Made by a program: the position numbers and the translations under genes. The notes beneath the pieces were generated by a model. It was not told the origin of the DNA. It did not search any database and saw only the letters and a program-made list of their open reading frames with translations. Positions 4,216-42,514 of a DNA stretch of 42,514 bases are shown here, piece after piece. How positions within the stretch are numbered: position 1 is the first letter of the stretch; every line of letters starts with the position of its first letter. The stretch lies in sequence record OQ921331.1; one strand, given 5' to 3'. Origin of the DNA: Escherichia phage vB_EcoP_PAS7.

Positions 4216-4225
4216 AGAGACAGAT

Positions 4226-4555
4226 ATGTTGCCAGTAAACGAAGTAGTCGGGCAGTACTGGCGTATGCTTGAGACTCAAAGCAGCTTAGGCCGTAAGACA
4301 TTGCAAGATATACCGATAGAGCTGCGCAGGCTCTGCCCTTTGAAATGGTGTACTGATTGGCAGTATCGTGAAGGTATGCGCCTGCTGGTAGGTTATTACA
4401 GCTATGATAACGAGAGAGCTTCAGAAGTCCTTCAGCGCATAGATTTTAATGTAATAAGGGAGTTGCAGGAGAAAGGGTATGAAGGTGCTAAGCAAGCGTT
4501 TAAGGATGCTTGCTTAGACTATTATGAATGGCAAGTATCGTACAGAGGTATCTAA
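4226..4555 (+). CDS. hypothetical early protein
   Basis: ORF track 4196..4555; in-frame ATG at 4226 with an AAAGAGACAG RBS. Confidence 0.45.
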   Translation: MLPVNEVVGQYWRMLETQSSLGRKTLQDIPIELRRLCPLKWCTDWQYREGMRLLVGYYSYDNERASEVLQRIDFNVIRELQEKGYEGAKQAFKDACLDYYEWQVSYRGI

Positions 4556-4706
4556 TGAACTTCGTAGAACATAATTTAAAGATTTCACCCATCAAGACAG
4601 GTTATAGCAGTATCTACAGACTAGACCAGAAGCATGGGCCTGAAGATAGTCCTAATGCTAGTACAGTATTCCTAACAGATGATAACATTAAGGAGTTAAT
4701 CAACTC

Positions 4707-5480
4707 ATGGCTGATGAACTCTGGCTCAGGACGGCAAAGCGCTTGGCTGTTGGACAAACTGAACGCTTTAGGTGCTGCGGAAGAACAGCAGCAGCCGTAA
4801 TAAGAAACGAGACTGATAAATGGTCCTGCTCCTGCTATCGTTGCAAGAGCTATCACGTAGAACGTAAGCAGTATGCGCAATTAGCAGCACCTGAAGTACT
4901 GGGGCGCGAGTTACCCGCCCCTCAGGACCTGAAGCGCCTGCCTGAACTGGATGCAGGGCTTCAGCAGTTCCTTTACGGATTCTTAATATCAAAAGGTATC
5001 TGGCCTGACATGGCTGGAGATGTTTATTACTCAGAACAATACAAGAGGTTAGTATGGAAATTATCAACGGTCAGTTACATAGCGCGAGCATTGCACGAGT
5101 ATCAGCAACCGAAATGGGTCGTAATGGGGAAGCCGATGCAGTATGCAGCCGCGACGAATACGACGGGTTCATTGATAGTATTGACGGAGGATTACCTTTC
5201 GGCTTTCAAAGTTCAGCAAGTCACGGAGAGGTATTCATCTCTACAAGTTACGGCGGTAGCGTTGCTTGGGACAAGATTACCGCTGACTCTGAAGGCTGGG
5301 CTTATTAAGTTAGGTAAGCCTGTAGTGTGTATGCTTGACGATGATAAAGCTGGCTGGGATGGTACAGTCAGTGTAATAAAACAGCTTAAACCTTTCCTGC
5401 CAGTCTATGATAGGCATTTAGATGTAGACCCTAAAGCCGCTCATTGCGGTAAGATACTTGGAGCATTTGATGGACTTTAA
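4707..5480 (+). CDS. DNA primase (zinc ribbon plus TOPRIM)
   Basis: AAGGAG RBS; N-terminal Cys cluster RCCGR...CSCYRC; TOPRIM-like CMLDDDKAGWDG. A separate primase and helicase is typical of phiKMV-like phages. Confidence 0.7.
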   Translation: MADELWLRTAKRLAVGQTERFRCCGRTAAAVIRNETDKWSCSCYRCKSYHVERKQYAQLAAPEVLGRELPAPQDLKRLPELDAGLQQFLYGFLISKGIWPDMAGDVYYSEQYKRLVWKLSTVSYIARALHEYQQPKWVVMGKPMQYAAATNTTGSLIVLTEDYLSAFKVQQVTERYSSLQVTAVALLGTRLPLTLKAGLIKLGKPVVCMLDDDKAGWDGTVSVIKQLKPFLPVYDRHLDVDPKAAHCGKILGAFDGL

Positions 5481-6744
5481 TTTACTACGCGCTTTCTGTG
5501 AACGTAAGGTAATGGATAGGTTGTACGAACAGACGCCTAAGTCCTTGCTAGCACCTGATACGGTAGCGATGATTGGTTGGCTGCAACTGTACTTCGCAAC
5601 TTATCCTGACTCTAACGAAGTTAACTTTGAGATGATGAATACGCTCTTGGATATGCGAGGGACACATCTTCAGAAAGAGCAGCTGGATATTATGAAGCAT
5701 ATGCTTAAGACTATTCAGAACGTCCCTACTGAGCTTGTAGCAGGTACAGTTAAGACACTGAATGAGCTAGCTTACTCTGGCGAGATGGCTGCACTAGTGA
5801 GCAAGTATCAGGCAGGTGATGAAATAGATTTCGTACAGGAAGCTAAAGCACTTGAGCGTAAGTACTCTGGTGTAGTAGCTGCTAATGATTCATTACTTAA
5901 ATGGGAAGATGGAGGTGTAGATGATATTCTCGCGGCTACTGATGAGTCTGGTGGTCTTAAGCTTACTGTGTTCAGTGAGTTGGCTAGAAACATTCGCGGC
6001 TTGCGGGGTGGTGATTGTGTCGCTGTGGCTGCTCCTGTTGACGCTGGTAAAACTTCTCTCCTTGCTGCTGCAGTAGTTAGCTTAGCTGAGCAGATGCATG
6101 AGCAGAAGGAGATTTACGCGGAGCGTCCTATACTGTGGCTGGTAAATGAATCATTAGCCAAGCGCACTGTTCCTCGTATCTATCAGGCAGCTACTGGGCT
6201 GACTCTTCAGCAGATTGTAGAGCAGCATAAAGAAGGTAAGTTCGCTGATAAGTATCTGAAGAAGGTTGGGACGTGGGATAAGATTCGCGTTAAGGATGCG
6301 CACAGTATGAATCTGGGGCAGATTTCAACCTTACTGGAGGAAATGAAACCTGCTGTTCTAGTAGTAGATATGGTGAGTGGTATCAAGGGCGCGAATGCTG
6401 ACTCAGAACATCAGGCACTGGAGCGTACTTGGCAGGAACTGCGCATCTTAGGCTGTGAGCATGACTGTATTATCATTGGTAGTATGCAGCTATCGGCAGA
6501 AGGTTACGATATGCTCTATCCCCCACTGACTGCTATGAAGCAATCACGCATCGGAGTACAGGGTGCATTAGACCTTTGTATTATGATGGGAAGATTGAAT
6601 GTGAATGATAAGCCGGACATGGCTAACATTCGCGGAATCTCTACCCCAAAATCAAAATTAACTAAGTCCGGCTGTCAGAGCTATGTTCAATTTCAGGTTG
6701 AATTTGACGGAGGACGTTGTCAGTTTAAGGAGGGTACATTATGA
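5470..6744 (+). CDS. replicative DNA helicase (DnaB/T7 gp4-like)
   Basis: Walker A AAPVDAGKTSLL and Walker B-like LVVDMV; ORF track start 5458 is TTG, the ATG at 5470 has a GGAG RBS. Confidence 0.7.
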   Translation: MDFNLLRAFCERKVMDRLYEQTPKSLLAPDTVAMIGWLQLYFATYPDSNEVNFEMMNTLLDMRGTHLQKEQLDIMKHMLKTIQNVPTELVAGTVKTLNELAYSGEMAALVSKYQAGDEIDFVQEAKALERKYSGVVAANDSLLKWEDGGVDDILAATDESGGLKLTVFSELARNIRGLRGGDCVAVAAPVDAGKTSLLAAAVVSLAEQMHEQKEIYAERPILWLVNESLAKRTVPRIYQAATGLTLQQIVEQHKEGKFADKYLKKVGTWDKIRVKDAHSMNLGQISTLLEEMKPAVLVVDMVSGIKGANADSEHQALERTWQELRILGCEHDCIIIGSMQLSAEGYDMLYPPLTAMKQSRIGVQGALDLCIMMGRLNVNDKPDMANIRGISTPKSKLTKSGCQSYVQFQVEFDGGRCQFKEGTL

Positions 6745-8582: not shown

Positions 8583-9729
8583 CAAGGCTTCGGAGTTCTT
8601 CAAGGCATACAGTGAGATGACCTTGCGTGAGAAAGATTTAGGCTTCTATGAGAAGAAGGAATTTAACAAGGACGGTAGCCTGCGTAAGACTACAGGTATG
8701 CTTCCGTATGTAATCCCTCAGAAGGAAGACGGCAGCGGCATCATTCATCACAGATTGAATCACTGCTCAACCACGACCGGACGACTATCAGCATCTAACC
8801 CGAATATGCAGCAGTTGCCGCGTGAATCTAAGGTTAAGCAGATTCTGCGTAGTCGTTACGGTGAGCAAGGTATGATTGCTCAGTGTGACTACTCAGCTAT
8901 GGAAGTTGTAATGGGCTGTGTAATAACAGGTGATAAGAAACTACTATCCTTGCTTGAAGCTGGTACAGATATGCACTGCTATCGTTTAGCATTCCAAGAG
9001 GGTATGCCTTATGAAGAAGTCTACGAGCTTTGCCATAACCCGGATGCACCTAACCATAAGGAATGGAAGAAGAAACGAACAGCAATCAAAACCTTCAGCT
9101 TCGCAGCGCAGTATGGAGCTTCCGCTAAAGGACTGGCGTTCGCCTCTGGTGCCAGCCTGAAGGACGCTGAGAAGTTCTTAGCTAACGAAGAAGCCCTGTT
9201 CCCTGAATCTATTAAGTACCGTGATGTAATTGCAGCAGAGGTAAATCGTACAGCACTGTTAGAGCCTATGCGCCGCGAGCAATCAGATGATGGTAGCTGG
9301 CGTATCTATCGGGAAGGCTATTTTACTGCTCCTTGTGGTACTCGTTACCGCTTCCGTCAGAAACCTGTATGGCGTGAAGGTAAGCAGGTCATGGACTTTA
9401 AACCTACAGAGATGGCTAACTATCCATTTCAAGGTTCAGGTTCTCTGCTTATGCTTATTGCGATGGGTATGATTCTGCGCGCAGGATTAGCTACGGATTG
9501 GGGTAACGGTAGTTGGTGCTTGTTAGCAACTGTACATGACTCCGTATATTGTGACTGTAAAGATGAGTCAACGGCGAGGGAAGTAGGTCAATTAATTAAG
9601 AAATGTATGGAAGGTGCAAGAGATAGAATGCTGCAACTTTGGCCTAACTTCGGAATACTACAGGACGTTAAATTCCCTGCCGAGTGTGGTATTGGTAAAT
9701 CATTTAAAGAGGAGCAGGTACTTGGCTAA
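8575..9729 (+). CDS. DNA polymerase part II (family A palm/fingers)
   Basis: Motif A CDYSAMEVV, motif B RTAIKTFSFAAQYGAS, motif C VHDSVYCD. ATG at 8575 is in the frame of ORF track 8560..9729. Confidence 0.7.
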   Translation: MSNKASEFFKAYSEMTLREKDLGFYEKKEFNKDGSLRKTTGMLPYVIPQKEDGSGIIHHRLNHCSTTTGRLSASNPNMQQLPRESKVKQILRSRYGEQGMIAQCDYSAMEVVMGCVITGDKKLLSLLEAGTDMHCYRLAFQEGMPYEEVYELCHNPDAPNHKEWKKKRTAIKTFSFAAQYGASAKGLAFASGASLKDAEKFLANEEALFPESIKYRDVIAAEVNRTALLEPMRREQSDDGSWRIYREGYFTAPCGTRYRFRQKPVWREGKQVMDFKPTEMANYPFQGSGSLLMLIAMGMILRAGLATDWGNGSWCLLATVHDSVYCDCKDESTAREVGQLIKKCMEGARDRMLQLWPNFGILQDVKFPAECGIGKSFKEEQVLG

Positions 9730-10225
9730 AGTTACTAAACCTATACCGGAAGGCATACGGGAATTTTGGAGATATGATTCTGAGAGTGGGAAATTAATAT
9801 GCATACAAAACATAAAGCGCACTAAGTACAGTGAAGGCATAGTTGCAGCTAGTCTTACAACTACAGGTAATTATCTAAAGCTGAATTTTAATAAGGTAAG
9901 CTACCTTCAGCATCGGGTAGCATGGTTCCTTTACTATAATGAACAACCTCCTGAAGTTATAGACCACAAGGACGGTAACGGCCTTAACAACGCTATAAAC
10001 AACCTGCGTGCTGCAGATGATGGTTGTAACATGATGGACATTACTGTAACTGCTAAATCCACTACAGGTATTAAAGGTGTCATGCCTGTACGGGGAGGTA
10101 AGCTGTTCCGTGCCGAAGTATGTGTAGATGGTAAGCGCTACCAGAAGCACAGCAAGGACGTAGCTTTCTTAGAGCAGTGGGTACAGGCTAAGCGTAAAGA
10201 ATTACACGGAGAGTTTTATAAATAG
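9722..10225 (+). CDS. HNH-AP2 homing endonuclease (paralog 1 of 3)
   Basis: HNH motif EVIDHKDGNGLNNAINNLRA followed by an AP2-like region; no in-frame ATG, likely TTG start at 9722 with an AAGAGGAG RBS; paralogous to 12767..13219 and 19681..20157. Confidence 0.6.
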   Translation: MAKVTKPIPEGIREFWRYDSESGKLICIQNIKRTKYSEGIVAASLTTTGNYLKLNFNKVSYLQHRVAWFLYYNEQPPEVIDHKDGNGLNNAINNLRAADDGCNMMDITVTAKSTTGIKGVMPVRGGKLFRAEVCVDGKRYQKHSKDVAFLEQWVQAKRKELHGEFYK

Positions 10226-10228
10226 CTG

Positions 10229-10257
10229 TTGACAAGCAGGGATGCTTTCCGTATAGT
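10229..10257. promoter_or_regulatory. sigma70-like promoter P3 (TTGACA-17-TATAGT)
   Basis: -35 at 10229-10234, 17-nt spacer, -10 at 10252-10257. Confidence 0.6.
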
Positions 10258-10344
10258 ACACACATCGACGAGGCAGGGAGCCAACCGGAAACGGTCAGTA
10301 GCGTCAGCAAGCATACGAAGAGCTGATAAGTATTAAGAAAGAGA

Positions 10345-10373
10345 TTGACAAGCAGTAACGAAGTAAGTAAGAT
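10345..10373. promoter_or_regulatory. sigma70-like promoter P4 (TTGACA-17-TAAGAT)
   Basis: -35 at 10345-10350, 17-nt spacer, -10 at 10368-10373; directly precedes element copy 3. Confidence 0.5.
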
Positions 10374-10379
10374 GTGCCA

Positions 10380-10510
10380 CATAGCAAGACGTTAACCGAG
10401 GACGATAAGCGGTTGCCCTTCTGAAGTCTCTGGGTAGATAAAACGAGACTGAACGGTTCCTCCCGTACACGGATAATTCAGTGTGATGCAGATGAGAGTC
10501 TAGGAGAAAT
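10380..10510 (+). ncRNA. candidate structured RNA element, copy 3 of 3
   Basis: AGACGTTAACCGAGGACGATAAGCGG...; hairpin stem AGTCTC 10425-10430 / GAGACT 10445-10450 with loop TGGGTAGATAAAAC; downstream block matches copy 2. Confidence 0.5.
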
Positions 10511-10589
10511 AAGACTCGCTAACTTAAGTAGGGTTAGTGATGCAGTCTTCAGAGATTGCAGCCTTAACTTTATTAATAGGAGGTAGTAG

Positions 10590-10778
10590 ATGAAAGTAAG
10601 AATCATCAATCACGATGCTTATGGTCCTTTCTTAACTGATACATGTAAGGAACTGTACGCAGTAGGTACAGTGCATGAAGTACAAGATTTCTTCCCTGAC
10701 ACGGGGGAGGTTATCTTAGGGTATGAAGATGAAGGATTTACCTTTGATCCATCAGAGTATGAAGTTGTGGAGGAGTAG
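10590..10778 (+). CDS. hypothetical small acidic protein
   Basis: ORF track, 62 aa; AGGAGG RBS; followed by a terminator. Confidence 0.5.
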   Translation: MKVRIINHDAYGPFLTDTCKELYAVGTVHEVQDFFPDTGEVILGYEDEGFTFDPSEYEVVEE

Positions 10779-10782
10779 GTGT

Positions 10783-10809
10783 AGCCCTGCGTAGGAAGGG
10801 CTTTATTAT
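10783..10809 (+). terminator. rho-independent terminator
   Basis: Stem AGCCCT 10783-10788 / AGGGCT 10797-10802, then TTATTAT. Confidence 0.5.
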
Positions 10810-10866
10810 AGCACGAATGCTGAGATTTGTACAGTAATAAATTAATTATTTACATAAGGGTTAAAT

Positions 10867-11612
10867 ATGAACTATTTAGATATCTGCGAGAAGTACAATG
10901 TAGGAAGCCTGCGCGACGCTAACCTGCGCGACGCTGACCTGTACGGCGCTAACCTGTACGGCGCTGACCTGCGCGACGCTAACCTGTACGGCGCTAACCT
11001 GTGCGGCGCTGACCTGCGCGACGCTAACCTGTACGGCGCTAACCTGTGCGGCGCTGACCTGCGCGGCGCTAACCTGCGCGGCGCTAACCTGCGCGGCGCT
11101 AACCTGTACGGCGCTAACCTGCGCGGCGCTAACCTGCGCCTAACCTGCGCGGCGCTAACCTGTACGGCGCTAACCTGCGCGGCGCTAACCTGCGCGGCGC
11201 TAACCTGTGCGGCGCTAACCTGTGCGGCGCTAACCTGCGCGGCGCTAACCTGCGCGGCGCTAACCTGTACGGCGCTAACCTGCGCGACGCTAACCTGCGC
11301 GACGCTGACCTGTGCGGCGCTGACCTGCGCGACGCTGACCTGTGCGGCGCTAACCTGCGCGGCGCTGACCTGCATGGGACTGACTTGATTGTAATTTATG
11401 GGGAACAGTACTTTATTAGCCTATACAAGGGAACAGTACGCGCAGGTTGTCAGTCGCATACGATAGCGGAGTGGCGAAGTTTTAGTAAGGAAGAAGTAAT
11501 TGCTATGGACGGGCGTAATTCTCTTAAATACTACCCACGTCTTTTAGACATCATTGATTTTTACTGTGGTAAGGGCGAGCGTCCTGATTGGGTAATGAAA
11601 ATAAACAAGTAA
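10867..11612 (+). pseudogene. pentapeptide-repeat protein, frame disrupted at about 11139-11141 by a 4-nt indel in the tandem-repeat region
   Basis: Frame 1 reads A(D/N)LXX pentapeptide repeats ([15 protein letters not shown]...) up to 11139. The repeat unit AACCTGCGCGGCGCT is shortened to AACCTGCGCCT at 11131-11141; the repeat frame continues in another frame to the stop at 11612, with a non-repeat C-terminal domain (ORF track 11385..11612). Confidence 0.55.
10921..11370. repeat. tandem 15-bp repeat array (about 30 units, consensus AACCTGCGCGGCGCT)
   Basis: Direct reading: 15-nt units with variants GAC/AAC, TAC/TGC/CGC and GGC/GAC; one truncated unit near 11131-11141. Confidence 0.9.
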
Positions 11613-24105: not shown

Positions 24106-24306
24106 ATGGCCTTACTGGCAAGCATTGGTGCAAAGCCCATGACTAAACGTTATGAAGCTAAGCGTGCGCTTAAGCAAGTGGAAGTCGAGCTTAAACGAGT
24201 ATCTCCAGAAGCTACTGCTGAAGAGGTAATCGAAGTAGTTGTAAGCGTACTTAAATCTAAGCTCGGTGTAGCTGAGCCAAAGAAGAAAGCTAAGAAAGCT
24301 GAATAA
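24106..24306 (+). CDS. hypothetical small protein with Lys-rich C-terminus
   Basis: ORF track, 66 aa, immediately upstream of the terminator. Confidence 0.4.
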   Translation: MALLASIGAKPMTKRYEAKRALKQVEVELKRVSPEATAEEVIEVVVSVLKSKLGVAEPKKKAKKAE

Positions 24307-24310
24307 CACT

Positions 24311-24350
24311 GAGCCCCGTATCCTTAATTGGGTGCGGGGCTTTTGTCGTT
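24311..24350 (+). terminator. rho-independent terminator downstream of the capsid gene (T-phi analogue)
   Basis: Stem GCCCCG 24313-24318 / CGGGGC 24335-24340 followed by TTTTGTCGTTT. Confidence 0.6.
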
Positions 24351-24407
24351 TCTAGACCCTTATCTTTTAAGTTCTAATCCCAGAGCTTAAAATATAGGAG
24401 ACTAATC

Positions 24408-24962
24408 ATGCGTCTTATCGATGCAGTGAACGTAACATTAGAAGCTCTGGGTGAATCTAGAGCTGTAGACTTGAACAGTAGCAATCCCTCAGTAGGCTTA
24501 GCTAAAGCAGCTATCGAGCGTACTCGACGTGGGGTGCTCAGTACCGGTCACTGGTTTAACGTGATTGAACGTGAAGTAGTACCAGCTCAGACAGGTCGTA
24601 TCAGTATCCCGTGGAAGCAACTGGCTATCTATGGTATTGACGGTAAGAAGTATTCCGAGCGTGATGGTATTCTCTACGACTTAGTAGAGCAGACTAATAG
24701 ATTCGAACAGCCTGTTAAGCTGCGTGTAGTACTGGACTTTGACTTCGAGGATTTACCAGAGCACGCTGCATTATGGATTGCGTATGAATCCGCAGCTCAG
24801 GTATACTCTAACGACTTAGGTGCAGATGCTACCTATCAGATTCTAACTCAACAGGCGCGTGAGTACGAAGCGCTTACCCTGCGTGAGCATTTACGCAATC
24901 AGCGGTACAGTACTGCGCGTACTCGTAACTCAGGCCGCATTCGTTATGGCTTCCGTATCTAG
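24408..24962 (+). CDS. tail tubular protein A
   Basis: 184 aa; position and size as T7 gp11; AGGAG RBS. Confidence 0.6.
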   Translation: MRLIDAVNVTLEALGESRAVDLNSSNPSVGLAKAAIERTRRGVLSTGHWFNVIEREVVPAQTGRISIPWKQLAIYGIDGKKYSERDGILYDLVEQTNRFEQPVKLRVVLDFDFEDLPEHAALWIAYESAAQVYSNDLGADATYQILTQQAREYEALTLREHLRNQRYSTARTRNSGRIRYGFRI

Positions 24963-24970
24963 AGGTACTC

Positions 24971-27304
24971 ATGGCTACAAGACCTAGCTCTAACGCATTA
25001 GAAGGTACTATCCCTAGCTTACTGCAAGGGGTCTCTCAGCAGATTCCACGTGAGCGTAAGCCCGGTCAGTTAGGTTCTCAAGTGAACATGCTATCTGACC
25101 CCGTTACCGGTATCCGTCGAAGACCTGCTGCTAAGCTGCTTCAGGACGCTACAGGTATTCCAGCGCCATTAACAGGTAAGCTATTTACTGCTTACGTAGA
25201 GCGTGGTACTGACGGCAGACATCTACTGATTGACACTACTAACGGTAACTGGTGGCTTCTGGCTAAGAATACCGGCAGCATAGTTAACCGTGGTAATAGT
25301 CCGTATCTGATTGCTAGTATAGGCGCGGTATCCATTCAGACTGCCAGTGTAGGTGGGTTAACTTACATCCTTAATACCGAGCAGAGGCCTGTTACTAACA
25401 TTAATAATGGCAATAAACAGAACCCCGCTAACACAGGCTTTGCCAGAGTACTGACAGGTGGCTTTAATAAACAGTGGACTCTTAATGTATACGCTAATGG
25501 AACTGTTTACACCAGCAGCTTCTATCAGAGTCAGGATGATATAGCAGGTTCCACTGCTGCTGCTATAGCTGGTAAGTGGCGTGATGGGTTACAATCTCAG
25601 ATGCCAGCAAACTCAGTGTTTGTGCAGGGTAGTTCTATATTCGTTAGAGGTACGAACGTATCTGTAGAGACTGATGCAGGTACTGCATATGCACTTACTT
25701 CTGGACAGTCTCGGGTAAATCAGGAAACTGACCTACCAGCAGTACTACCAGCAACAGCAGACGGTGCACTATGCGCAGTAGGTCAAGCAGGGGCAGATAG
25801 TACTTGGTATCAGTACGATTACTCTAAACGTAGCTGGATTGAGACTGGTGCTTATAATAGCATAAGCAGCGTTACTAACGTACCTTTAGAATTGGCAGTA
25901 GATGATAATATTATCGAACGCCCTTTCGAAGGTAGGCTCTCAGGAGATGACGAAACTAACGCAGACCCTTACTTCATTACCAACGGTTACTTCACAGGTA
26001 TTGCGGCATTTCAAGGGCGGCTAGTACTACTGTCTGGTGCAGGTATTACATTCTCAGCGTCAGGCCTGTATCAGCGCTACTATCGAAGCACAGTAACCTC
26101 ACTGTTGGATACTGACCGTATAGATATTGCGGCAGCATCTGCGCAGGACTCTGTGTTCCGCACAGCCTTACAGTTCAACCGAGATTTAACTATCTTTGGT
26201 GACAGTATGCAGGCAGTAGTACCGGGCGGTGGTGCGTTAACCCCTACAAACGCAAGCGTAACATTAACGTCAGAGTTCTCGAGTGACAGTCGGGTTGTGC
26301 CAATTGTCGCAGGTCAGACTATCCTCTACCCGAACCGTAGGAACGAAGGTTATGCAGGAGTGCTTGAGTTCTTGCCAAGTCCTTACACTGCCAGTCAGTA
26401 CACTACGCAGGATGCTACTGCGCACCTGCCCCGTTATATACCGGGCCGTATCATGAAGATGGTACTTAGCTCCGTAACTAACATAGGATTTATTCAGTAC
26501 AGCGGTGAGCGTAACGCACTGCTTGTGCACGAGTATCTCTGGACGGGTGATGGCAAGGCGCAGGCTGCTTGGCATAAGTGGACGTTCAAACAAGAAGTAC
26601 TGAGCGTGCATAGTCAATCAGAAGTAATGTACTTGTTTACACGTAACCCTAGCTCAGGTGAAGTACAGGTCCAGACTATTGACCCCCGCGAAGGGTTTGT
26701 AGCTGATGGCTTGTACGAAGTTCCATACCTAGATGCGCGTACCTTAATGAGCGTACAAGGCGGTCAGTTCACAGTTCCAGCGCATTTACGCGGCTCTGAT
26801 TACATGCAAGACCTTGCGTTAGCATATCCAGAGACTAGTGGATTAGCAGGTGATAATGTTGGCATTCTATCCTATGACGGAGATACAGGTAAGGTAGTAA
26901 GAGGTGTTCCAGATGGTAACTATTATATAGGCTTCCGTATTCCGAGCAGCTTTACTATTACCCCGCCTATGATAAAGGACGCTAACGATAACTTGGTAGG
27001 TTCTGGGCATGTACGCCTGTTGCGTCTAGATGCAGCTGCGCGTAAGTCCGGTGTATTCTATGTAGAGGTCAAGGACACTGCCAGAGGTGTAGATAATGAT
27101 AATCTATACTCAGGGCTGTTACTGAACTCACGAGAACTTGCGCCTGACCTAGCTCCTAGATTTGAACTAGGTAACGTTATAATCCCTTGCAGGACTAACT
27201 CCGATACTACTGAGGTTACTTTCAGTACTCGAGATACGTTAGAAATGAACATACTGGATATCTCGTATATCCTTAAATACAGTCCACGTCGTAGACGTAT
27301 ATAA
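24971..27304 (+). CDS. tail tubular protein B
   Basis: 777 aa; position and size as T7 gp12. Confidence 0.6.
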   Translation: MATRPSSNALEGTIPSLLQGVSQQIPRERKPGQLGSQVNMLSDPVTGIRRRPAAKLLQDATGIPAPLTGKLFTAYVERGTDGRHLLIDTTNGNWWLLAKNTGSIVNRGNSPYLIASIGAVSIQTASVGGLTYILNTEQRPVTNINNGNKQNPANTGFARVLTGGFNKQWTLNVYANGTVYTSSFYQSQDDIAGSTAAAIAGKWRDGLQSQMPANSVFVQGSSIFVRGTNVSVETDAGTAYALTSGQSRVNQETDLPAVLPATADGALCAVGQAGADSTWYQYDYSKRSWIETGAYNSISSVTNVPLELAVDDNIIERPFEGRLSGDDETNADPYFITNGYFTGIAAFQGRLVLLSGAGITFSASGLYQRYYRSTVTSLLDTDRIDIAAASAQDSVFRTALQFNRDLTIFGDSMQAVVPGGGALTPTNASVTLTSEFSSDSRVVPIVAGQTILYPNRRNEGYAGVLEFLPSPYTASQYTTQDATAHLPRYIPGRIMKMVLSSVTNIGFIQYSGERNALLVHEYLWTGDGKAQAAWHKWTFKQEVLSVHSQSEVMYLFTRNPSSGEVQVQTIDPREGFVADGLYEVPYLDARTLMSVQGGQFTVPAHLRGSDYMQDLALAYPETSGLAGDNVGILSYDGDTGKVVRGVPDGNYYIGFRIPSSFTITPPMIKDANDNLVGSGHVRLLRLDAAARKSGVFYVEVKDTARGVDNDNLYSGLLLNSRELAPDLAPRFELGNVIIPCRTNSDTTEVTFSTRDTLEMNILDISYILKYSPRRRRI

Positions 27305-34488: not shown

Positions 34489-35697
34489 ATGGCTTACAGC
34501 TGGCAAGAACAACGCTTGCCAGCGGGAAGTCAGACCGTACCTGTAGAGATTCAGTACCTTGACCGCTCGTACATTCATTTGTACATCAACGAGGTTGAGG
34601 TTACTGACTTTACATGGGGTAGTGATACGCTTATCCGGTTTGACCAAACGCTGGCAGAAGAGTCTACTGTACTACTAGTTCGCCGCACCCCGCGCGAATA
34701 CCTGTACCTTATGTTCTCTGAGGGCGCTGCCTTTATTAAAGAGAACTTGGATACACAGAATCGTCAGTTCCTGCATTTAGCTCAGGAGCTTGTAGAAGGC
34801 CGTTCTGTTGACGGTTTCTTCGGTAACATTGATATGAACGGCTATCGGATTGTTAACCTGCGCGCAGGCGAGCAACCGGGGGATGCTGTTAATAAGGGCC
34901 AGTTGGATGCTGAAGCTTTGAGAATATCTGCGTTAGAGAACACATTCGTCTCTCAGACTAATTCTTATCCGTGGTATACTACTGCCACAGAACCTACAGA
35001 TATACTTACACCTCCGCTAGTCTTTAATAAAGCATCTGTGTATATTAATGGAGTATGTCAGACCCCAGGCTACAGTTATGAAGTAGTAGCTAATACTATT
35101 ATGCTGGCTGACCCTATTCCGGCAGGTACACACGTATTTGCACGTTTAGGTGAGGATGTTACGGACCTAGTACCTGACTATGCTACAGGCAGCCAACTAC
35201 AGGCAGTAGCCCAACGTACTACGCTAGTAGAAGAAGATATGCAGACTGTGCAAGCATCTATGAATAGTTTGCAATCTGACGTTACTTCTTTAGACACCTC
35301 TAAGGCGGCTAAAGGTGATGCAGGGCTTGCTCAGTTAGGAGCTACGGCTGTAGGGTCTGCTGTATTTAAAGCAGCTTCACAGGTAGATGCTAGAGCTGCT
35401 ATCGGCGCTAATAGCTCACTAAGCCAACAGGCCCAGCAGACTTTTAGAGATGCAGCCACTGGTTTTACTATTAAGATGGGAGTACTCCCAGCTTCGCTGA
35501 CTTCCCCTTACACGGTAACATTTGATATTCCGTTTACTGCCTTATTTCAAGTGCAGCTTACAGGCGGCCCTACTACTGGGGAAAGTGCTACAGGTAACGC
35601 GCAGGTTAGTGCACTAGCAGCATCCTCGTTTACCTGTAAAGCAGCAGCAGTAGCAGAGCTACAAGGCTGCTATTGGGTAGCGTATGGTACCAGTTAA
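34489..35697 (+). CDS. tail fiber/adaptor protein with T7 gp17-like N-terminal domain
   Basis: GYRIVNLRAGEQPGDAVNKGQLDAEA parallels T7 gp17 GRRIVNLANAVDDRDAVPFGQLKTM. Confidence 0.65.
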   Translation: MAYSWQEQRLPAGSQTVPVEIQYLDRSYIHLYINEVEVTDFTWGSDTLIRFDQTLAEESTVLLVRRTPREYLYLMFSEGAAFIKENLDTQNRQFLHLAQELVEGRSVDGFFGNIDMNGYRIVNLRAGEQPGDAVNKGQLDAEALRISALENTFVSQTNSYPWYTTATEPTDILTPPLVFNKASVYINGVCQTPGYSYEVVANTIMLADPIPAGTHVFARLGEDVTDLVPDYATGSQLQAVAQRTTLVEEDMQTVQASMNSLQSDVTSLDTSKAAKGDAGLAQLGATAVGSAVFKAASQVDARAAIGANSSLSQQAQQTFRDAATGFTIKMGVLPASLTSPYTVTFDIPFTALFQVQLTGGPTTGESATGNAQVSALAASSFTCKAAAVAELQGCYWVAYGTS

Positions 35698-36021: not shown

Positions 36022-37845
36022 GTGATTAGTCCTACTACATTAAACCGATTGAAACTAATATCTCAACGCACTACTGTAATGAACGACAATCCCCGCGGCA
36101 TTCCCAAGGACCAGCGCGAGGAAGTTGCGCTAATGATGGCTGTCACTCTAAAGGACTTCCGAGAGTTCGCATACTTAGGTATGAAGTTCCTCGGCTTTGA
36201 CCTTACGGAGATGCAGCGCGATATAGCTGACTTCATGCAGCACGGTCCGCGTAAGCGCATGGTGGCCGCACAGCGTGGCGAGGCTAAGTCTACACTCGCA
36301 GCTCTCTATGCAGTCTGGCGCCTGATTCAGGACCAGAGCACGCGTATTCTTATTGTATCCGGTGGTGAGAAGCAGGCATCTGAAGTAGCTACGCTTGTTA
36401 TCCGTATGATTGAAACGTGGCCTTTACTGTGCTACCTCAAGGCTGATAGTACTCGCGGTGACCGTACCTCTTATGAGGGTTACGATGTTCACTGCGACCT
36501 GAAGCCTTTGGATAAATCTGCCAGCATCGCGTGCGTAGGTATTACCGCACAGCTTCAGGGTAAGCGTGCTGACCTGCTAATCCCAGATGATATTGAGACT
36601 ACTAAGAACGGCTTAACGCAGACTATGCGTGAGCAGTTGCTTAGCATCTCTAAAGACTTTGCAGCAATCTGTACGCACGGTGATACCTTGTATCTTGGCA
36701 CGCCTCAGACTAAGGACAGTATCTACAAGACGCTTACGGGTCGTGGCTTCGAGGTTCGTGTATGGCCCGGTCGTATCCCTAATCAGGAGATGCGCGAGCG
36801 TTACGGAGAAACCCTAGCCCCGTATATTCAAACCCTCATCGACGCAGGGTACAAAGAGACAGGCTTCGGGTTAGATGGTACGTTAGGTGAATGCACCGAT
36901 AAAGGACGCTATAACGAGGAAGCCTTGATTGAGAAGGAACTGGACTTCGGCCCAGAAGGGTTCCAATTACAGTATATGCTCGACACAACCATGTCCGATG
37001 CACTGCGTACCAAGATTAAACTCAGTGACGCTTTGATTTACACTGGCTCGCATGATGCAGCGCCTGACCGACTGAACTACATGGCTGATAAGCGCTATCT
37101 CTACGGAGAGGAACATGAGGGTATTCGAGGTCAGCAGTTGTATGTGCCGAGTCACGTAGGTGAGCACATGCTCAACTATAAGCACAAGCTGCTGGTACTT
37201 GACCCTGCTGGTAACGGTGGTGATGAAGTATCCTTTGCAGCTGGTGGTGCAGTCAGCTCTTACATCCATCTCTTTAGTGTAGGTGGTTTGCAAGGCGGGC
37301 TTAGCACAGAGAACGTAGATACCTTAATTGACCTAGCGGTCGAGATGGGTATTACTGATATCTTCGTCGAGCGTAACATGGGTCACGGCACGGTAGAATC
37401 TTTGATTATAAACCGTCTACGTGAACGTAGTATGCCCGGCATTGGTGTCAGGGGCGGTTATAACACGTCTCAGAAAGAGAAACGTATCATTGATACTATC
37501 TCCCCTGTTACGCGTCGTCACCGCTTTGTAGTGCACGCTAGGGCGCTGGAAGACGATATCAAGTACTGTATGCAGTACAGTCGTGATAAGCGCTGGCTTT
37601 ACAGTGCGTTCCAGCAGTTATCCGGTATTACTTATGACCGTGGTAGCCTGGCGAAGGATGACCGGGCAGACGCTATTAGTATGCTCGTAGCTGAACTGAA
37701 CTCGCACCTCGTAGAGGATGAGAAGCAGGCAGCAGAGAAGGACCAGCTTAAGAAGGCGTTAGACTTTATGGATAACCCTATGGGCTGGAAGAAGTCAATG
37801 GTACAGAAGCGCAAGCGCGGTGCAAGCGCACGTATCGGTTATTAA
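36022..37845 (+). CDS. terminase large subunit
   Basis: 607 aa; position and size as T7 gp19; starts at GTG 36022, alternative ATG at 36079. Confidence 0.65.
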   Translation: MISPTTLNRLKLISQRTTVMNDNPRGIPKDQREEVALMMAVTLKDFREFAYLGMKFLGFDLTEMQRDIADFMQHGPRKRMVAAQRGEAKSTLAALYAVWRLIQDQSTRILIVSGGEKQASEVATLVIRMIETWPLLCYLKADSTRGDRTSYEGYDVHCDLKPLDKSASIACVGITAQLQGKRADLLIPDDIETTKNGLTQTMREQLLSISKDFAAICTHGDTLYLGTPQTKDSIYKTLTGRGFEVRVWPGRIPNQEMRERYGETLAPYIQTLIDAGYKETGFGLDGTLGECTDKGRYNEEALIEKELDFGPEGFQLQYMLDTTMSDALRTKIKLSDALIYTGSHDAAPDRLNYMADKRYLYGEEHEGIRGQQLYVPSHVGEHMLNYKHKLLVLDPAGNGGDEVSFAAGGAVSSYIHLFSVGGLQGGLSTENVDTLIDLAVEMGITDIFVERNMGHGTVESLIINRLRERSMPGIGVRGGYNTSQKEKRIIDTISPVTRRHRFVVHARALEDDIKYCMQYSRDKRWLYSAFQQLSGITYDRGSLAKDDRADAISMLVAELNSHLVEDEKQAAEKDQLKKALDFMDNPMGWKKSMVQKRKRGASARIGY

Positions 37846-38045: not shown

Positions 38046-38443
38046 TGATTCGTGCAGCCGCTGGGTTAGTACTCGTTACGGCGCTTACAGGATGCTCAGC
38101 GGCTTCTGCACTATCAGGATTAGTCGGCACTAAGCCAGACCTGACAGTGCAGGCTGGGGCTGAGAATACTAAGCAGACCGTAGGTTTGAACAGTAGATCC
38201 GACTCCAGCACGGATACAACAATCAAAGATTCCAATGTAGGTACTCTAGACACTTCTACAAAGAAGCAGTCAGTTACTACTGGAACTATCAATACAGAGC
38301 GTGTACAGGTTGTTAATAATGACAGTACAAGCATTATACTAGCAGGGTTGGCGGGTGCAGCGGTTCCAATCGCAATCCTCATCATTATCCTGCTTTTCCG
38401 CAAGCTCGGAAGGAAGGGTGACGTAGATGAGTCTACCAATTAG
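38045..38443 (+). CDS. unimolecular spanin (u-spanin)-like lysis protein
   Basis: N-terminal lipoprotein signal with lipobox LTGC (MIRAAAGLVLVTALTGCSAAS), Ser/Thr-rich middle, C-terminal TM helix IILAGLAGAAVPIAILIIILLF; same architecture as T1 gp11. Confidence 0.55.
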   Translation: MIRAAAGLVLVTALTGCSAASALSGLVGTKPDLTVQAGAENTKQTVGLNSRSDSSTDTTIKDSNVGTLDTSTKKQSVTTGTINTERVQVVNNDSTSIILAGLAGAAVPIAILIIILLFRKLGRKGDVDESTN

Positions 38444-38675
38444 CGGGGATACAATCACCCGCGTAGGAGCGCAGGCAGCGGCCGCCACTATGGGTGGTGG
38501 ATGGGTGGCTGATATCATGTCTTGGCAATGGGGCACTATCTCTTTTATTGTAGGTACTGTAGTAGCGGTACTAACGTTTCTTTGGAATGCCTACTATAAA
38601 CGCAAGGAGTACTTGCTGAAAGAGAAAGCATTACAGAAAGGCTTAGAGTACTACGAGTTCAAGAATAAACCATAA
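38427..38675 (+). CDS. holin (pinholin-like, two predicted TM segments)
   Basis: 82 aa; weakly hydrophobic first segment and TM GTISFIVGTVVAVLTFLW, then a charged C-terminus; adjacent to spanin and SAR endolysin. Confidence 0.45.
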   Translation: MSLPISGDTITRVGAQAAAATMGGGWVADIMSWQWGTISFIVGTVVAVLTFLWNAYYKRKEYLLKEKALQKGLEYYEFKNKP

Positions 38676-38685
38676 GGGTTATATT

Positions 38686-38931
38686 ATGACTAGGTACGGA
38701 GCAGGTGCACACACTTTTCGATTTGGGAGTGGTGCACGGGACAGGATTGTAGTACCAGATGCAGGTACTACTGTAACGGTAGAGTACTGGTCTGGTACAG
38801 AGTGGGTTATGGACGTAGATTCACCAATTGACTCTCCAGCTACACTTTATACGCGGCTTGTACGTGTCCGCTTAACTGCGGATGGCGGCTTCTCCTTTGA
38901 TGTAGTGGAGGCTATTGATGAGTCTAATTAA
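38686..38931 (+). CDS. hypothetical protein
   Basis: ORF track, 81 aa; overlaps the start of the collagen-like gene. Confidence 0.4.
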
Positions 38932-40018
38932 TCAGCGCCGTCGTATCTCTAAGGGTGGCAATACCGGCGGTGGTGGCGGTACTGGGCCACAAGGACCTGT
39001 AGGGGAGCAAGGCCCTGTAGGGCCTATGGGTCCGGCAGGTGCAGATGGCCCAGTAGGTCCAGTAGGTCCAGTCGGTCCACAAGGTCCTCAAGGCCCAGCT
39101 GGGCCTCAGGGTCCGCAAGGTCTGCAAGGTCCTGAAGGTGTTCAAGGAGCTAAGGGAGATAAGGGCGATACTGGTCCAGCGGGGCCAGCGGGTCTCAACT
39201 TCCGTGCTGCTTGGGTTCCGGGCTTGACCTATGCTTTACAGGATTCAGTAGCCTACAATGGTAGTACTTGGTTTGCTAATTCGGCTATTGAGGCAGACGT
39301 AACGCCCGGTACTGATCCTCGTTGGGTGCTGCTTGCTATGCAGGGTACTAAGGGGGATACCGGACCTACAGGTCCACAGGGGCCTCGCGGAGTGCAAGGC
39401 GTGCCCGGAGACGTAGGCCCTCAGGGTCCGCAGGGTATAGCAGGCCCGCAGGGTATTCGCGGTCCTCAAGGTGATACCGGCGAGCAAGGTCCCGCAGGGC
39501 CACAGGGCGCTAGAGGTATACAGGGAGTTAAAGGCGATAAAGGCGACAAGGGTGATAAAGGGGATACAGGCGCTACTGGACCCCAAGGACCCGCAGGTCA
39601 AAATAATACCAATAATCCAGTATATACTACACAACTTGCAGTATCTACTAGCTATTCGGCAATAGCTATTCCTAATAACCCCGGAGTATCCTTAACGGTT
39701 AGACGTGTCAGCAATAATATTGAGTATTCATTTACTGGTAACTCCATTGCGGGTAGGTACTTCGACGTAGAATTAGTTAACTTCCCCTCAGCGGACGTAG
39801 TCAAAAGGTATCAATCTAACCATACAATAGCAGGTACTAGCCGCTATGTAGTAGGCGACCCCGCAGGCTACACTGGTACAGGATACAAGAAGATTCAAAT
39901 TACTGCAAGGGATTGGGGAGATAAGAATATTATTATCATAGACCTGTTCCACCTACAACGAGCTGGGGATGCTAACTTCAACATCGCCATTAGGATTGAG
40001 ACCTTTAAACTTCCTTAA
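38918..40018 (+). CDS. collagen-like (Gly-X-Y repeat) protein with C-terminal globular domain, possible fiber or receptor-binding protein
   Basis: Two G-X-Y blocks ([23 protein letters not shown]... and [19 protein letters not shown]...[13 protein letters not shown]); ATG at 38918 with a GGAGG RBS. Confidence 0.6.
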
Positions 40019-40029
40019 GTTGAGGCACT

Positions 40030-40569
40030 ATGCTATCGAATAAAATCAAGGCAGCGCTGGCAGGGTCTTCCCTGCTGGGCGCGAGCCTATTCGCAGTAAT
40101 TGAAAGCAACGAAGGCTTATCCCTCACTGCTTACAAAGATTCCGCAGGCGTACCTACCATCTGCTATGGCGAGACTAAAGGCGTTAAAATGGGCCAAAAG
40201 GCTACGCTGTCGCAGTGTCAGGCCATGCTGATACAGTCAGCAGGGGAACACGCTAAGGCTCTTGACGGGCTTCCTATGCATCTTACGGACGTACAGCTTC
40301 TGGGAGCCATAGACCTAACCTATAACATTGGGGTATCAGGTTTCAAGAACAGCACCGTGAAGCGCAAGCTAATGCAAGGGGATAATAAAGGTGCTGCTCA
40401 GGCCGTACTAGCGTGGCGCTACATCACTGTTAAGGGTAAGAAGTACGATTGCTCAGTTAAGGCCAACAAGGTCTGCTACGGCCTCTGGAAGCGCCGTGTT
40501 TGGGAATCCCAAGCTATTGGCAATGAATTTAAATCAATGCAGGCAGCAGTAGCTGCTATGCCTAAATAA
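40030..40569 (+). CDS. signal-arrest-release (SAR) endolysin, T4-lysozyme-like muramidase
   Basis: N-terminal SAR-like segment IKAALAGSSLLGASLFAVI; catalytic-region pattern ESNEGLSLTAYKDSAGVPTICYGET matches the Glu-Asp-Thr arrangement of GH24 lysozymes. Confidence 0.65.
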   Translation: MLSNKIKAALAGSSLLGASLFAVIESNEGLSLTAYKDSAGVPTICYGETKGVKMGQKATLSQCQAMLIQSAGEHAKALDGLPMHLTDVQLLGAIDLTYNIGVSGFKNSTVKRKLMQGDNKGAAQAVLAWRYITVKGKKYDCSVKANKVCYGLWKRRVWESQAIGNEFKSMQAAVAAMPK

Positions 40570-40578
40570 GGAAACAGC

Positions 40579-42021
40579 ATGTCACTTGTAAGTCTAGTAC
40601 GCGACACTACTCAAGATATCAAGCACAAGGCAGATATTCTTCTTGATTATCTGGACCGCCAGGAGCAAGGCTTAGGTCAGGTTCAGGAGTTTGTAGAATC
40701 CTCCACTATTCTGAATATCCCTTCTTTGCGTAGCTTACTACCTTCCTCCGAGGGTCAGGTGGTGCAAGTACTAAGTAGTTACAGCACCGCCGCTACACAA
40801 CTCCATTTAGGTGGTGGGCAGTTCCAAGCTGTTAATAACCTGCAAGCAGAGCCAGACGATGGCGGTATTGTAGTGCACAGTACGCATCCTACGCTGGTAT
40901 GGAAACGCATTAACTTCACTGCTTATGATATGCAGTTCTGGGGTGTAGTAGCTGATGCAAGTACTGATAACGCAGCAGCCATTACCCGCGCTACTCAGTA
41001 CGCCCGGCGTAACCGAATTGTACTGGAAGCCCCCGCAGGCAGTATTCATACCAGTGAAATGGTCCCCCTGTACGATAACATGGGTATACGTGGGCATGGT
41101 CGCGCCGAGAATACAGTATTCTACAAGACCACTAACAACGGGTTCAACTACACCAAGAACGGGGTAACTGTCCTTACTGTAGATGCGTTGGCTGGGTTTG
41201 TGCCTAAAGAGTGGGACCTCGCTGATTACGAGATAAAGAGTTTCTGTGTGCATGCACAGCTTATTGGCTGTATGTTCCGCAGACTTGGCCTCAGTGCTGA
41301 GAACGTAGCCACAACTCGCCCACAGTACGGCCTGCATATCGGCAAGGCAGCTACAGCGGTCGTGCGTCAGTGTACATTCGAAGGTGGTTACATTGGCATT
41401 AAGGGCTATAACGTATTCAGTAGCGTCTTCGAGAGTGTAGCAGCGGTGCAGTTCAATGGCTATGGCTATGCTGGTGTAAGTATCAGCGACTACCGTAACA
41501 GCACTTTATACAACTCAGGTACATCACTGGACATGCGTATCGTGCAGGTACGTGGATACCAGTTCGGCTTTGAACTGGACCGCCTGCAGTACAGTACCCT
41601 TATCGATTGTACAGCAGAAGAAATCGTCCCTATGGCTGGGGAAACCACAAGCTACGCCTTCAGTATGTACGACCCGTTCTGTATCACAATGCTGAACTGT
41701 GCTACCGAGTTCGTTAAGGGTGGACAGATTCGTGTACTAGGTTTCGCTAACCCTAGCTTCCGACCGCAGCTTAAAGTTACCGGATTCATTGCTATAGACC
41801 AGCAGAACCCGGCTGCGCTTACTCCCATCTACCTTGTCGACAACGGGGGTACTACAGGTATGAACGTTGTTATAGAGGCATCTGAACTATCCAGAAACAC
41901 TGCTCTGAGCAATAACGGGCAGCCGAGTGTACAAGGTGCAGGAGCTAAGGTAATCCTGATTGGATGCTCTGGAGAGGACTGGGTAGCTTCTGGTAGTGGG
42001 GTATTCACTAGACTCGCTTAA
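40579..42021 (+). CDS. tail spike protein, putative capsule/polysaccharide depolymerase (pectate-lyase-like beta-helix)
   Basis: 480 aa; GVVADASTDNAAAITRATQYARRNRIVLEAPAGSIHTSEM resembles the Pectate_lyase_3 N-terminal signature; no T7 gp17-type anchor domain; last gene of the genome. Confidence 0.5.
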   Translation: MSLVSLVRDTTQDIKHKADILLDYLDRQEQGLGQVQEFVESSTILNIPSLRSLLPSSEGQVVQVLSSYSTAATQLHLGGGQFQAVNNLQAEPDDGGIVVHSTHPTLVWKRINFTAYDMQFWGVVADASTDNAAAITRATQYARRNRIVLEAPAGSIHTSEMVPLYDNMGIRGHGRAENTVFYKTTNNGFNYTKNGVTVLTVDALAGFVPKEWDLADYEIKSFCVHAQLIGCMFRRLGLSAENVATTRPQYGLHIGKAATAVVRQCTFEGGYIGIKGYNVFSSVFESVAAVQFNGYGYAGVSISDYRNSTLYNSGTSLDMRIVQVRGYQFGFELDRLQYSTLIDCTAEEIVPMAGETTSYAFSMYDPFCITMLNCATEFVKGGQIRVLGFANPSFRPQLKVTGFIAIDQQNPAALTPIYLVDNGGTTGMNVVIEASELSRNTALSNNGQPSVQGAGAKVILIGCSGEDWVASGSGVFTRLA

Positions 42022-42514
42022 GCTCAGTACTGGCATTATACAAGGCATTACAGGGAATTACAGGGTGCGTGTGTAAACATGCACCTTGGATTTATTATAC
42101 TTACGCGAGGCCCTCCCTCACCCGACCAACGCCCTCTTCCCCCCATAGGGTGGTCTGCTGGGACGTTTCTAGGTCAATAGGGGTGCCGTAGTGCCTATCG
42201 CAGCGGTGTACAGGCCTGTATCTGGGCCTATGCAGCGGTAGTAATGTGGCAGTAACGGCAGTAACAGGGCAAGCTCTGGTGCTCTGTGCTTCTCTTTGTA
42301 GGGGCGCAGGAGAGCTGGCGCTTGCCTATTTTGTTCTTCCTATAGTACGCCTGTGCTCTCCCTTGTTCTCTCCTTGATGTGTCACTGCGCTAGCTCTGCT
42401 TAGCAATGGCTTGCTTCTTTTGTTCTACTGTGCTAGGCTTGGTTTTAATGCAGTGCGCTCTTTAATAATCAGGTAGGTCATATACTATTAATACATTTGC
42501 TTGGTGAGGACACT
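42022..42514. other. non-coding right-end region, candidate genome terminus or packaging region
   Basis: No ORF of 60 aa or more; C-rich tract CCCTCCCTCACCCGACCAACGCCCTCTTCCCCCC; short direct repeats GCAGTAAC. Confidence 0.4.
42064..42095 (+). terminator. putative terminator hairpin after the tail spike gene
   Basis: GGTGCGTG...CATGCACC imperfect stem followed by TTGGATTTATTAT. Confidence 0.35.

Follow-up and report, generated by a model that had tools for sequence, protein, structure and literature searches.

Escherichia phage vB_EcoP_PAS7 (PAS7; sequence record OQ921331.1) is a KP34-like podophage of the proposed genus Cepavirus, in the Slopekvirinae, whose isolation host is Escherichia coli O103 (Pas et al. 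2024, PMC11522302). The window, that is the whole stretch of 42,514 nucleotides (nt) analysed here, holds the standard Slopekvirinae pair of an adaptor fibre (34489-35697) and a terminal tailspike (40579-42021), and in addition a gene for a collagen-like protein at 38918-40018. What would such a protein do in a phage equipped with this pair, and where would it be held? A first-pass annotation had taken it for a possible second fibre or receptor-binding protein (RBP). We found that the collagen-like gene forms a two-gene insertion with a small upstream gene, orf81, and that homologues of both are encoded in head regions of other phages. The collagen-like protein is very likely a virion-associated fibre. 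That this fibre is an accessory one, anchored through orf81, probably displayed on the capsid and not the determinant of O103 specificity, is the reading that we favour and to which we give an even chance; its location we infer from gene context.

Anatomy of the collagen-like protein

The open frame of the collagen-like gene reads from 38915 or 38918, and 38918 was taken as the start because every relative begins at that ATG (MSLIN...). The encoded chain, in amino acids (aa), is divided as follows.

38918-40018, + strand: collagen-like fibre gene, 366 aa, 37 kDa per chain
38918-38956, + strand: N-terminal peptide, 13 aa, basic (isoelectric point, pI, about 12), proposed docking peptide
38957-39199, + strand: G-X-Y block 1, aa 14-94, 27 triplets (translation, Pfam)
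39200-39343, + strand: inter-collagen node, aa 95-142 (48 aa), small beta domain like carbohydrate-binding modules (CBM) 5/12 (sub-threshold Pfam match, family profile)
39344-39604, + strand: G-X-Y block 2, aa 143-229, 29 triplets (translation, Pfam)
39605-40015, + strand: C-terminal knob, aa 230-366 (137 aa), basic (pI 9.3), of a rare family

Both G-X-Y runs are uninterrupted, with X mostly Pro (16 of 27 triplets in the first run, 11 of 29 in the second) and Y mostly Gln, Thr or Lys, and the match to the Pfam Collagen family (PF01391; E=8.2e-23, 80.4 bits against a cut-off of 27.2) greatly exceeds what chance would give. The first-pass annotation had described two long G-X-Y blocks with non-collagen sequence between and after them; our coordinates and the Pfam match agree with it. 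Its proposal of a trimeric fibrous protein is almost certainly right, judging from the length of the repeats, from which we take the protein to be a homotrimer. Three 366-aa chains would form a thin fibre consisting of about 48 nm of triple helix (168 G-X-Y residues at 0.286 nm each), the CBM5/12-like node and a distal, beta-rich knob.

The node matched Pfam CBM_5_12 (PF02839) with E=1e-3 and 19.5 bits, under the cut-off of 26.2, and a profile of eight family members found the chitin-binding domains of chitinases as its best matches in the PDB (E=7.7e-4 to 0.012). The knob is without a sequence match in Pfam, NCBIfam or the PDB; when its profile was compared with PDB sequences, only rotavirus VP8* was retrieved, at a non-significant E=0.35. 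Its G+C content is about 41%, compared to 47% in the genome. A word-index protein search was nearly blank for the knob, and an exhaustive search among 1.84 billion clusters gave nine representatives at E<=1e-3. The 5,426 complete E. coli genomes searched had no match to the knob DNA, a megablast comparison of the region with phages returned a 44-bp repeat match only, and in NCBIfam the whole protein matched only streptococcal and Legionella collagen adhesins, via its repeats and with scores well short of the cut-off. In the comparison with the sibling contig L016, the ratio of nonsynonymous to synonymous changes (pN/pS) in the knob is 0.06 and the sole insertions or deletions are of whole G-X-Y triplets (one and two). 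These two observations establish that the gene is clearly functional and under purifying selection.

Three long open reading frames (ORFs) cross the collagen region, at 38924-39145 and 39245-39634 on the - strand and at 39471-39665 on the + strand. They are by-products of the G-X-Y coding periodicity and not genes.

A Pfam scan revealed neither PF03906 or another tail-anchor domain nor an N-terminal DUF1737 (PF08410) in the collagen-like protein. There is no beta-helix and no match to a spike family, and no similarity to fibritin or collar families was seen in Pfam or PHROG. The N-terminus is hydrophilic, with neither signal peptide nor membrane segment; a secreted adhesin was rejected on the absence of a signal peptide. 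A defence or anti-defence gene was also rejected; a PADLOC defence-system scan gave no match.

A two-gene insertion in the lysis cassette

Homology in blastn to the relatives P64441 and ECO104 4-5-2 breaks off at 38657 (end of the holin gene) and restarts at 40048 (start of the endolysin gene). Because DNA homology breaks at these two points, orf81 and the collagen gene together constitute a 1.39-kb insertion between holin and endolysin.

38427-38675, + strand: holin, left flank of the insertion
38658-40047, no strand assigned: extent of the insertion compared with relatives without the module (blastn)
38686-38931, + strand: orf81, 81 aa, 8.9 kDa, acidic (pI 4.5), proposed adaptor or anchor (phrog_8454, E=7e-14)
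40030-40569, + strand: endolysin, right flank of the insertion

The module is missing from P64441 (terL 91% identical in nt), ECO104 4-5-2 and phiKDA1, which have in common the gene order gp17-like fibre, small and large terminase, a small ORF, spanin, holin, endolysin and tailspike. The insertion is confined to one subclade; the identical site is occupied in the metagenomic relatives L008-L012, L015 and L016. Among these relatives a 20-residue N-terminus of the fibre is kept and the distal parts change: in L012 an N-terminal stretch of 10 residues is followed by about 13 G-X-Y triplets and an unrelated C-terminal domain, and in L015 the fibre has two CBM-like nodes and a knob that is 27% identical to that of PAS7.

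Between the lysis genes and the spike, the sole terminator-like site is a weak 8-bp stem within the holin gene. The first strong terminator-like hairpin (42061-42088, a 12-bp stem followed by a T-run) lies directly after the tailspike gene and is the probable end point of the late transcription unit to which the module belongs. The orf81-collagen pair would be a portable accessory-fibre module transcribed with the late genes.

A gene inside the lysis cassette could also encode non-structural cargo, made late and left unassembled, which would serve as a cell-wall- or glycan-binding helper of lysis or, once released, as an adhesin or decoy. Polymers of N-acetylglucosamine could be ligands of the CBM5/12-like node, and the GenBank record of phage LIMEzero does not mark a similarly arranged gene pair (see below) as structural. 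Relatives nevertheless lyse without the collagen gene, which led us to reject a lysis component; the protein lacks a signal peptide or membrane segment and has no defence-system match, homologous modules are situated within structural gene blocks, and in phage CB7 a collagen protein encoded at the equivalent position is found in virions. We consider cargo of this kind improbable.

orf81 homologues precede genes whose products start with MSLI

The last 14 nt of orf81 overlap the fibre gene. Its family, PHROG 8454, is one of unknown function. With a 13-sequence alignment, AlphaFold2 (AF2) predicted a compact jelly-roll of eight to nine strands (predicted local distance difference test, pLDDT, 94.6; predicted template modelling score, pTM, 0.83); the model was confident only with this alignment, the single sequence giving a pLDDT of 42. 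Compared with L016, the pN/pS of orf81 is 0.10.

About 90 Vibrio siphophages have a homologue of orf81, as do Shewanella phage 3/49 and siphophage contigs from metagenomes. At all eight siphophage loci examined (L006, L007, L014, L019, L020 and L022-L024, from phage records, IMG/VR and metagenome contigs), the homologue lies directly 3' of the major capsid gene (Gp13-like or SU10_MCP) and 5' of the head-tail connector genes. It always precedes a gene that overlaps it by 1-14 nt and whose product starts with MSLIN, MSLIG, MSLID, MSLIS or, in one case, MSILS. The remainders of these partners are mutually unrelated (114 aa with a weak Ig_3 match, 182, 193, 206, 272, 433 and 941 aa). The same pairing of a PHROG 8454 member (72-91 aa) with an overlapping downstream gene occurs at no fewer than, that is at least, 12 loci, and the PAS7 fibre, which begins MSLINQ, has the MSLI(N/G/D/S) that is conserved in the partners of orf81 homologues. 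Tight translational coupling, an N-terminal tag and free exchange of cargo are as expected of an adaptor and a displayed protein. In PAS7, the MSLIN of a fibre without an anchoring domain of its own would dock on the jelly-roll of orf81, which would fix the fibre to the virion.

The same two-gene architecture is seen in another T7-like phage, Pantoea phage LIMEzero (L025, NC_015585). At its right end, after the endolysin, positions 24243-25033 encode a 72-aa beta protein (ORF56) and an overlapping 191-aa protein (ORF57) that starts MSLLNNGEG. In Foldseek, ORF56 matched the model of orf81 weakly (E=0.013, template modelling score, TM, 0.63-0.69), and hhalign detected no similarity between its profile and that of the orf81 family (probability 0.1); because of the latter the resemblance is treated as a lead only. 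Homologues of ORF57 are present in 107 phage records, and the copy in Klebsiella phage ZC2 lies directly after the major head gene.

Relatives of the fibre are encoded in head-gene regions

From aa 80 to 366, the PAS7 fibre shares 66% identity with proteins of 513 aa in Rogunavirinae siphophages (Phagiculus, MM01, UDF157lw) and 57% with a Vequintavirinae protein of 527 aa (W70, A73); the T4-like phages JS10, VR25/26 and Kosakonia 305 have copies that are more distant. The knob is the best-conserved part (88% identity in Phagiculus, 86% in W70). The Rogunavirinae proteins (Drexlerviridae; Phagiculus CDS0013, PHROG 5073) and W70_129 are homologous to the PAS7 fibre from the node to the C-terminus and display the same order of collagen, node, collagen and knob. 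They differ from it in their N-termini, as the Rogunavirinae proteins carry their own tandem DUF1737 anchor and those of W70 and Kosakonia 305 a GV[FY]YGxAFYDL peptide, in both cases without an orf81 partner, whereas the PAS7 fibre has only its 13-aa peptide and would rely on orf81. They also differ in gene position, the Rogunavirinae and W70 copies being in head modules and the PAS7 copy in the lysis cassette.

In Phagiculus, the gene sits between the one for a Phage_cement protein (PF22758, E=5.6e-26) and that for the major head protein; its product begins with DUF1737 in two stretches (E=9.8e-9, 35.4 bits against a cut-off of 24). The DUF1737 of phi24B gp84 is a capsid-binding domain located on hexon pores by cryo-electron microscopy (preprint, bioRxiv 10.64898/2026.04.10.717836). 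In W70, a pair of collagen genes comes directly after the Phage_cap_E capsid gene and before the genes for Neck1, a minor head protein and the sheath. In CB7, another member of the Vequintavirinae, the collagen-domain protein CB7_10, encoded two genes past the major head gene, was represented by 39 peptides in purified virions analysed by mass spectrometry; it was likened to the W70 proteins (e.g. W70_131) by gene position, not by sequence. In JS10 and Kosakonia 305, the fibre homologue adjoins Hoc-like decoration genes and inh, not wac. Because homologues of both the fibre and orf81 are encoded in head regions and the closest full-length relative has a DUF1737 anchor, the capsid is the likeliest site in PAS7: the fibre would be attached at the capsid surface, as a head fibre, rather than at the tail.

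W70 (L005 5455-7038) and Kosakonia phage 305 (L018 4140-5549) have in common the N-terminal sequence GV[FY]YG[NY]AFYDL before the collagen region, which might represent an anchor peptide of a third type. Neither the DUF1737-type nor the JS10-type N-termini matched any PDB sequence, and a literature search for collagen proteins in Rogunavirinae/Rogue1 found nothing.

The PAS7 protein matches PHROG 5073 ('tail fiber protein') with E=2.3e-62, aa 76-362 aligning to profile positions 195-515 of 519. This functional label is unverified and is contradicted by the gene context, and the 'tail fiber' labels on the family as a whole seem to derive from the collagen repeats. The N-terminal part of the DUF1737-collagen proteins is labelled 'DNA polymerase' in the records of C119, phiKP26, Sf12, Opt-79, Phleasolo and Sadiya and in PHROG 22681, evidently an annotation error propagated through databases.

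Capsid, tail or neck

If attached to the tail, the collagen-like protein would be a second fibre or RBP that docks on the gp17-like adaptor or on the tail itself and, with the tailspike, takes part in recognizing the host. True lateral tail fibres such as phi24B gp61 can have collagen-like shafts, the best PHROG families of the protein are labelled tail fibre, a two-RBP design is documented in KP34-like phages and the collagen gene lies near the spike, and a fibre of about 50 nm would extend past the short tail. MSLIN is also loosely like the conserved spike N-terminus M[AST]LV.N (M[AT]LV.N(I/V).V in the spikes of relatives, MSLVSLVRD in that of PAS7). In contrast, the lack of PF03906 or any other tail-anchor domain argues against the tail, as does the fact that MSLI tracks with orf81 homologues in siphophages without a gp17-type adaptor. 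The homologues and partner genes are located in head modules, one of them with a capsid-binding domain; the knob is common to phages of hosts with different O-antigens and the fibre varies independently of the spike (see below); and the tail-fibre labels appear to have been propagated from the collagen repeats, the same genes being also called 'DNA polymerase'. We consider tail attachment unlikely.

The head-tail junction is a third candidate site, at which the fibre would be a neck or collar whisker like T4 fibritin or the lactococcal neck-passage structures and act as an environment sensor or first-contact fibre. Lactococcal neck-passage proteins contain collagen-like repeats. The module of the siphophages and of W70 falls precisely between the capsid gene and the genes for head completion or the neck, and W70 and T4-like Kosakonia 305 share their N-terminal motif despite having different families of capsid protein. 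However, the homologue with DUF1737 indicates hexon binding, the T4-like copies adjoin hoc and not wac, and the protein resembles neither fibritin nor collar families. A whisker is in our estimation a minor prospect, well behind tail attachment.

Several points also weigh against a capsid-displayed fibre. The PAS7 module is outside the head-gene block and the PAS7 protein itself is without DUF1737; collagen-like shafts are common in true tail fibres, and the best PHROG carries a tail-fibre label. Gene neighbourhood is circumstantial, the T4 hoc region holding non-head genes as well. The Ser of the MSLI motif may partly mirror the ATGA stop/start overlap, which can account for it; Leu-Ile is not explained in this way. 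The paper describing PAS7 does not contain the word 'collagen' and leaves the gene unmentioned (PMC11522302).

The capsid reading can be extended, tentatively, beyond PAS7. PHROG 8454 might be a universal jelly-roll plug on the HK97-fold capsids of unrelated siphophages and podophages, which would recruit MSLI(N/G/D/S) cargo such as Ig domains, long fibres and collagen fibres; the collagen-node-knob family of Rogunavirinae, Vequintavirinae, T4-like and PAS7-like phages would then be head fibres, and what they all bind would be not O-antigen but, for instance, mucus of the gut or an envelope glycan that is conserved. We regard this generalization as possible, though doubtful.

Fibre and tailspike are exchanged independently

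The two genes of the standard pair, both named by the first-pass annotation, were recovered in the family searches as follows.

34489-35697: T7-gp17-type adaptor fibre, 402 aa (PF03906, E=2.2e-11)
40579-42021, + strand: tailspike, outside the module (PHROG spike/depolymerase families)

In the paper describing PAS7, the 480-aa tailspike is named as the primary determinant of O103 specificity on the basis of homology to spikes predicted to target O103, and K-12 strains are not infected by PAS7 (PMC11522302). In contig L016, the fibre is 95% identical to that of PAS7 and the other proteins are 93-100% identical, and the spike (9405-11135) is unrelated (576 versus 480 aa, 3% identity). In L012, both the knob and the spike (4219-6105; 628 aa) differ from those of PAS7. 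Because L016 keeps the fibre together with an unrelated spike, fibre and spike are separate units that are exchanged independently. The position of the spike at the right end is ancestral and conserved in KP34-like phages (Slopekvirinae), only the spike sequence having been exchanged. The first-pass annotation had placed the collagen-like gene and the spike in one modular, probably horizontally exchanged host-range cassette; modularity and horizontal exchange are borne out for the distal parts, and the single cassette is not, as the collagen gene is a separate insertion and the spike occupies its ancestral site.

Phages with a near-identical knob have O157:H7, K-12 MG1655 and O103 hosts. Since this knob is present in phages of O157 and of rough K-12, which PAS7 does not infect, the fibre is not an O-antigen determinant of host range. 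The role of a second host-range fibre or RBP that had been proposed for it is therefore not upheld by comparison with relatives of different host specificity, nor is it by the absence of a gp17-type N-terminal domain or by homologues in head-gene modules, one of them with DUF1737. A common ligand of low specificity is favoured over O-antigen because phages of several serotypes have the knob in common and because fibre and spike vary independently. Through the knob and the CBM-like node, the fibre would adhere with low specificity to a ligand common to different E. coli or to their environment, for instance mucus or a surface glycan that is conserved, and this adhesion would supplement, not replace, the O103-specific tailspike.

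Other features of the late region in the PAS7 group

The 402-aa gp17-like fibre of PAS7 has a Gp53-like C-terminal domain. In the closest relative, P64441 (L001 2516-5764), a protein of 1082 aa joins the gp17-like adaptor to an endo-N-acetylneuraminidase; from this difference, the first RBP, too, is swapped within the PAS7 group. ECO104 4-5-2 (L002 8570-8822) carries about 251 extra bases within the large terminase gene, relative to positions 36591/36592 of PAS7, and identical UNVERIFIED records labelled 'Listeria' and 'Salmonella' also carry them. The extra bases could be an intron or an assembly artefact, and the odd host labels suggest contamination of those records.

Comparison with known systems

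Collagen-like phage fibres and capsid-displayed adhesins are kinds already known. In phi24B gp84, a NanS-p esterase, a small capsid-binding module shows variable glycan-directed cargo (bioRxiv 10.64898/2026.04.10.717836). Its DUF1737 also heads the closest full-length homologue of the PAS7 fibre, which itself has none; the cargo of gp84 is an esterase that is proteolytically shed, that of PAS7 a collagen fibre. According to the work of Zairi et al. 2014 as cited in PMC7602432, SPP1 gp12 is a collagen-like trimer on an HK97-fold capsid, dispensable and with a proposed role in adhesion; by analogy, it offers a precedent for collagen-like trimeric capsid decoration. Some siphophages with the orf81 module have SPP1 gp13-like capsid proteins. 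SPP1 gp12 is tiny (about 6.6 kDa), binds the capsid directly and is not known to have a node, a knob or an adaptor protein. T4 Hoc and phi29 gp8.5 are non-essential fibres that project from the capsid and promote adhesion to surfaces or mucus, and are functional analogues of the proposed PAS7 fibre. Neither is related to it in sequence or fold, Hoc being a monomer in which Ig domains are strung together and the capsid-binding domain is C-terminal, and gp8.5 a helical trimer.

The collagen-like side tail fibres of lambdoid and Shiga toxin phages (EPcl, Ghosh et al. 2012, PMC3368898; phi24B gp61) have, as proposed for PAS7, a trimeric collagen shaft and a small C-terminal globular domain on a coliphage. 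The PAS7 fibre contains none of the EPcl phage-fibre Pfam domains. Proteins of the EPcl type are mounted on the tail, with phage-fibre domains at the N- and C-terminus as well as coiled coils. With respect to the dual RBP system of KP34-type phages, the PAS7 collagen protein is an extra element outside the conserved adaptor-spike pair: the KP34-type tailspike is a beta-helix depolymerase with an M[AST]LV.N peptide, encoded at the right end after the endolysin, whereas the collagen gene is upstream of the endolysin.

What appears to be new is the conserved pair of an adaptor gene and an MSLI-tagged gene, the transfer of an adaptor-fibre pair into the lysis cassette of a T7-like podophage, and the evidence for head association of a family that is annotated as tail fibres. 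If the protein were a tail fibre instead, a KP34-like phage would have a third component for receptor binding, a smaller step. If the capsid reading is true, the name 'tail fiber protein', and in some records 'DNA polymerase', would be wrong for a whole family of coliphage proteins, and PAS7-like podophages would display, on the capsid or the virion, an adhesin that does not depend on their O-antigen spike. Such an adhesin would have a bearing on the retention of phages in the gut, on adsorption kinetics and on the prediction of host range from sequence, and the orf81/MSLI pair, with an adaptor of 81 aa and a tag of five residues, would provide a compact, portable display system for phage display and engineering.

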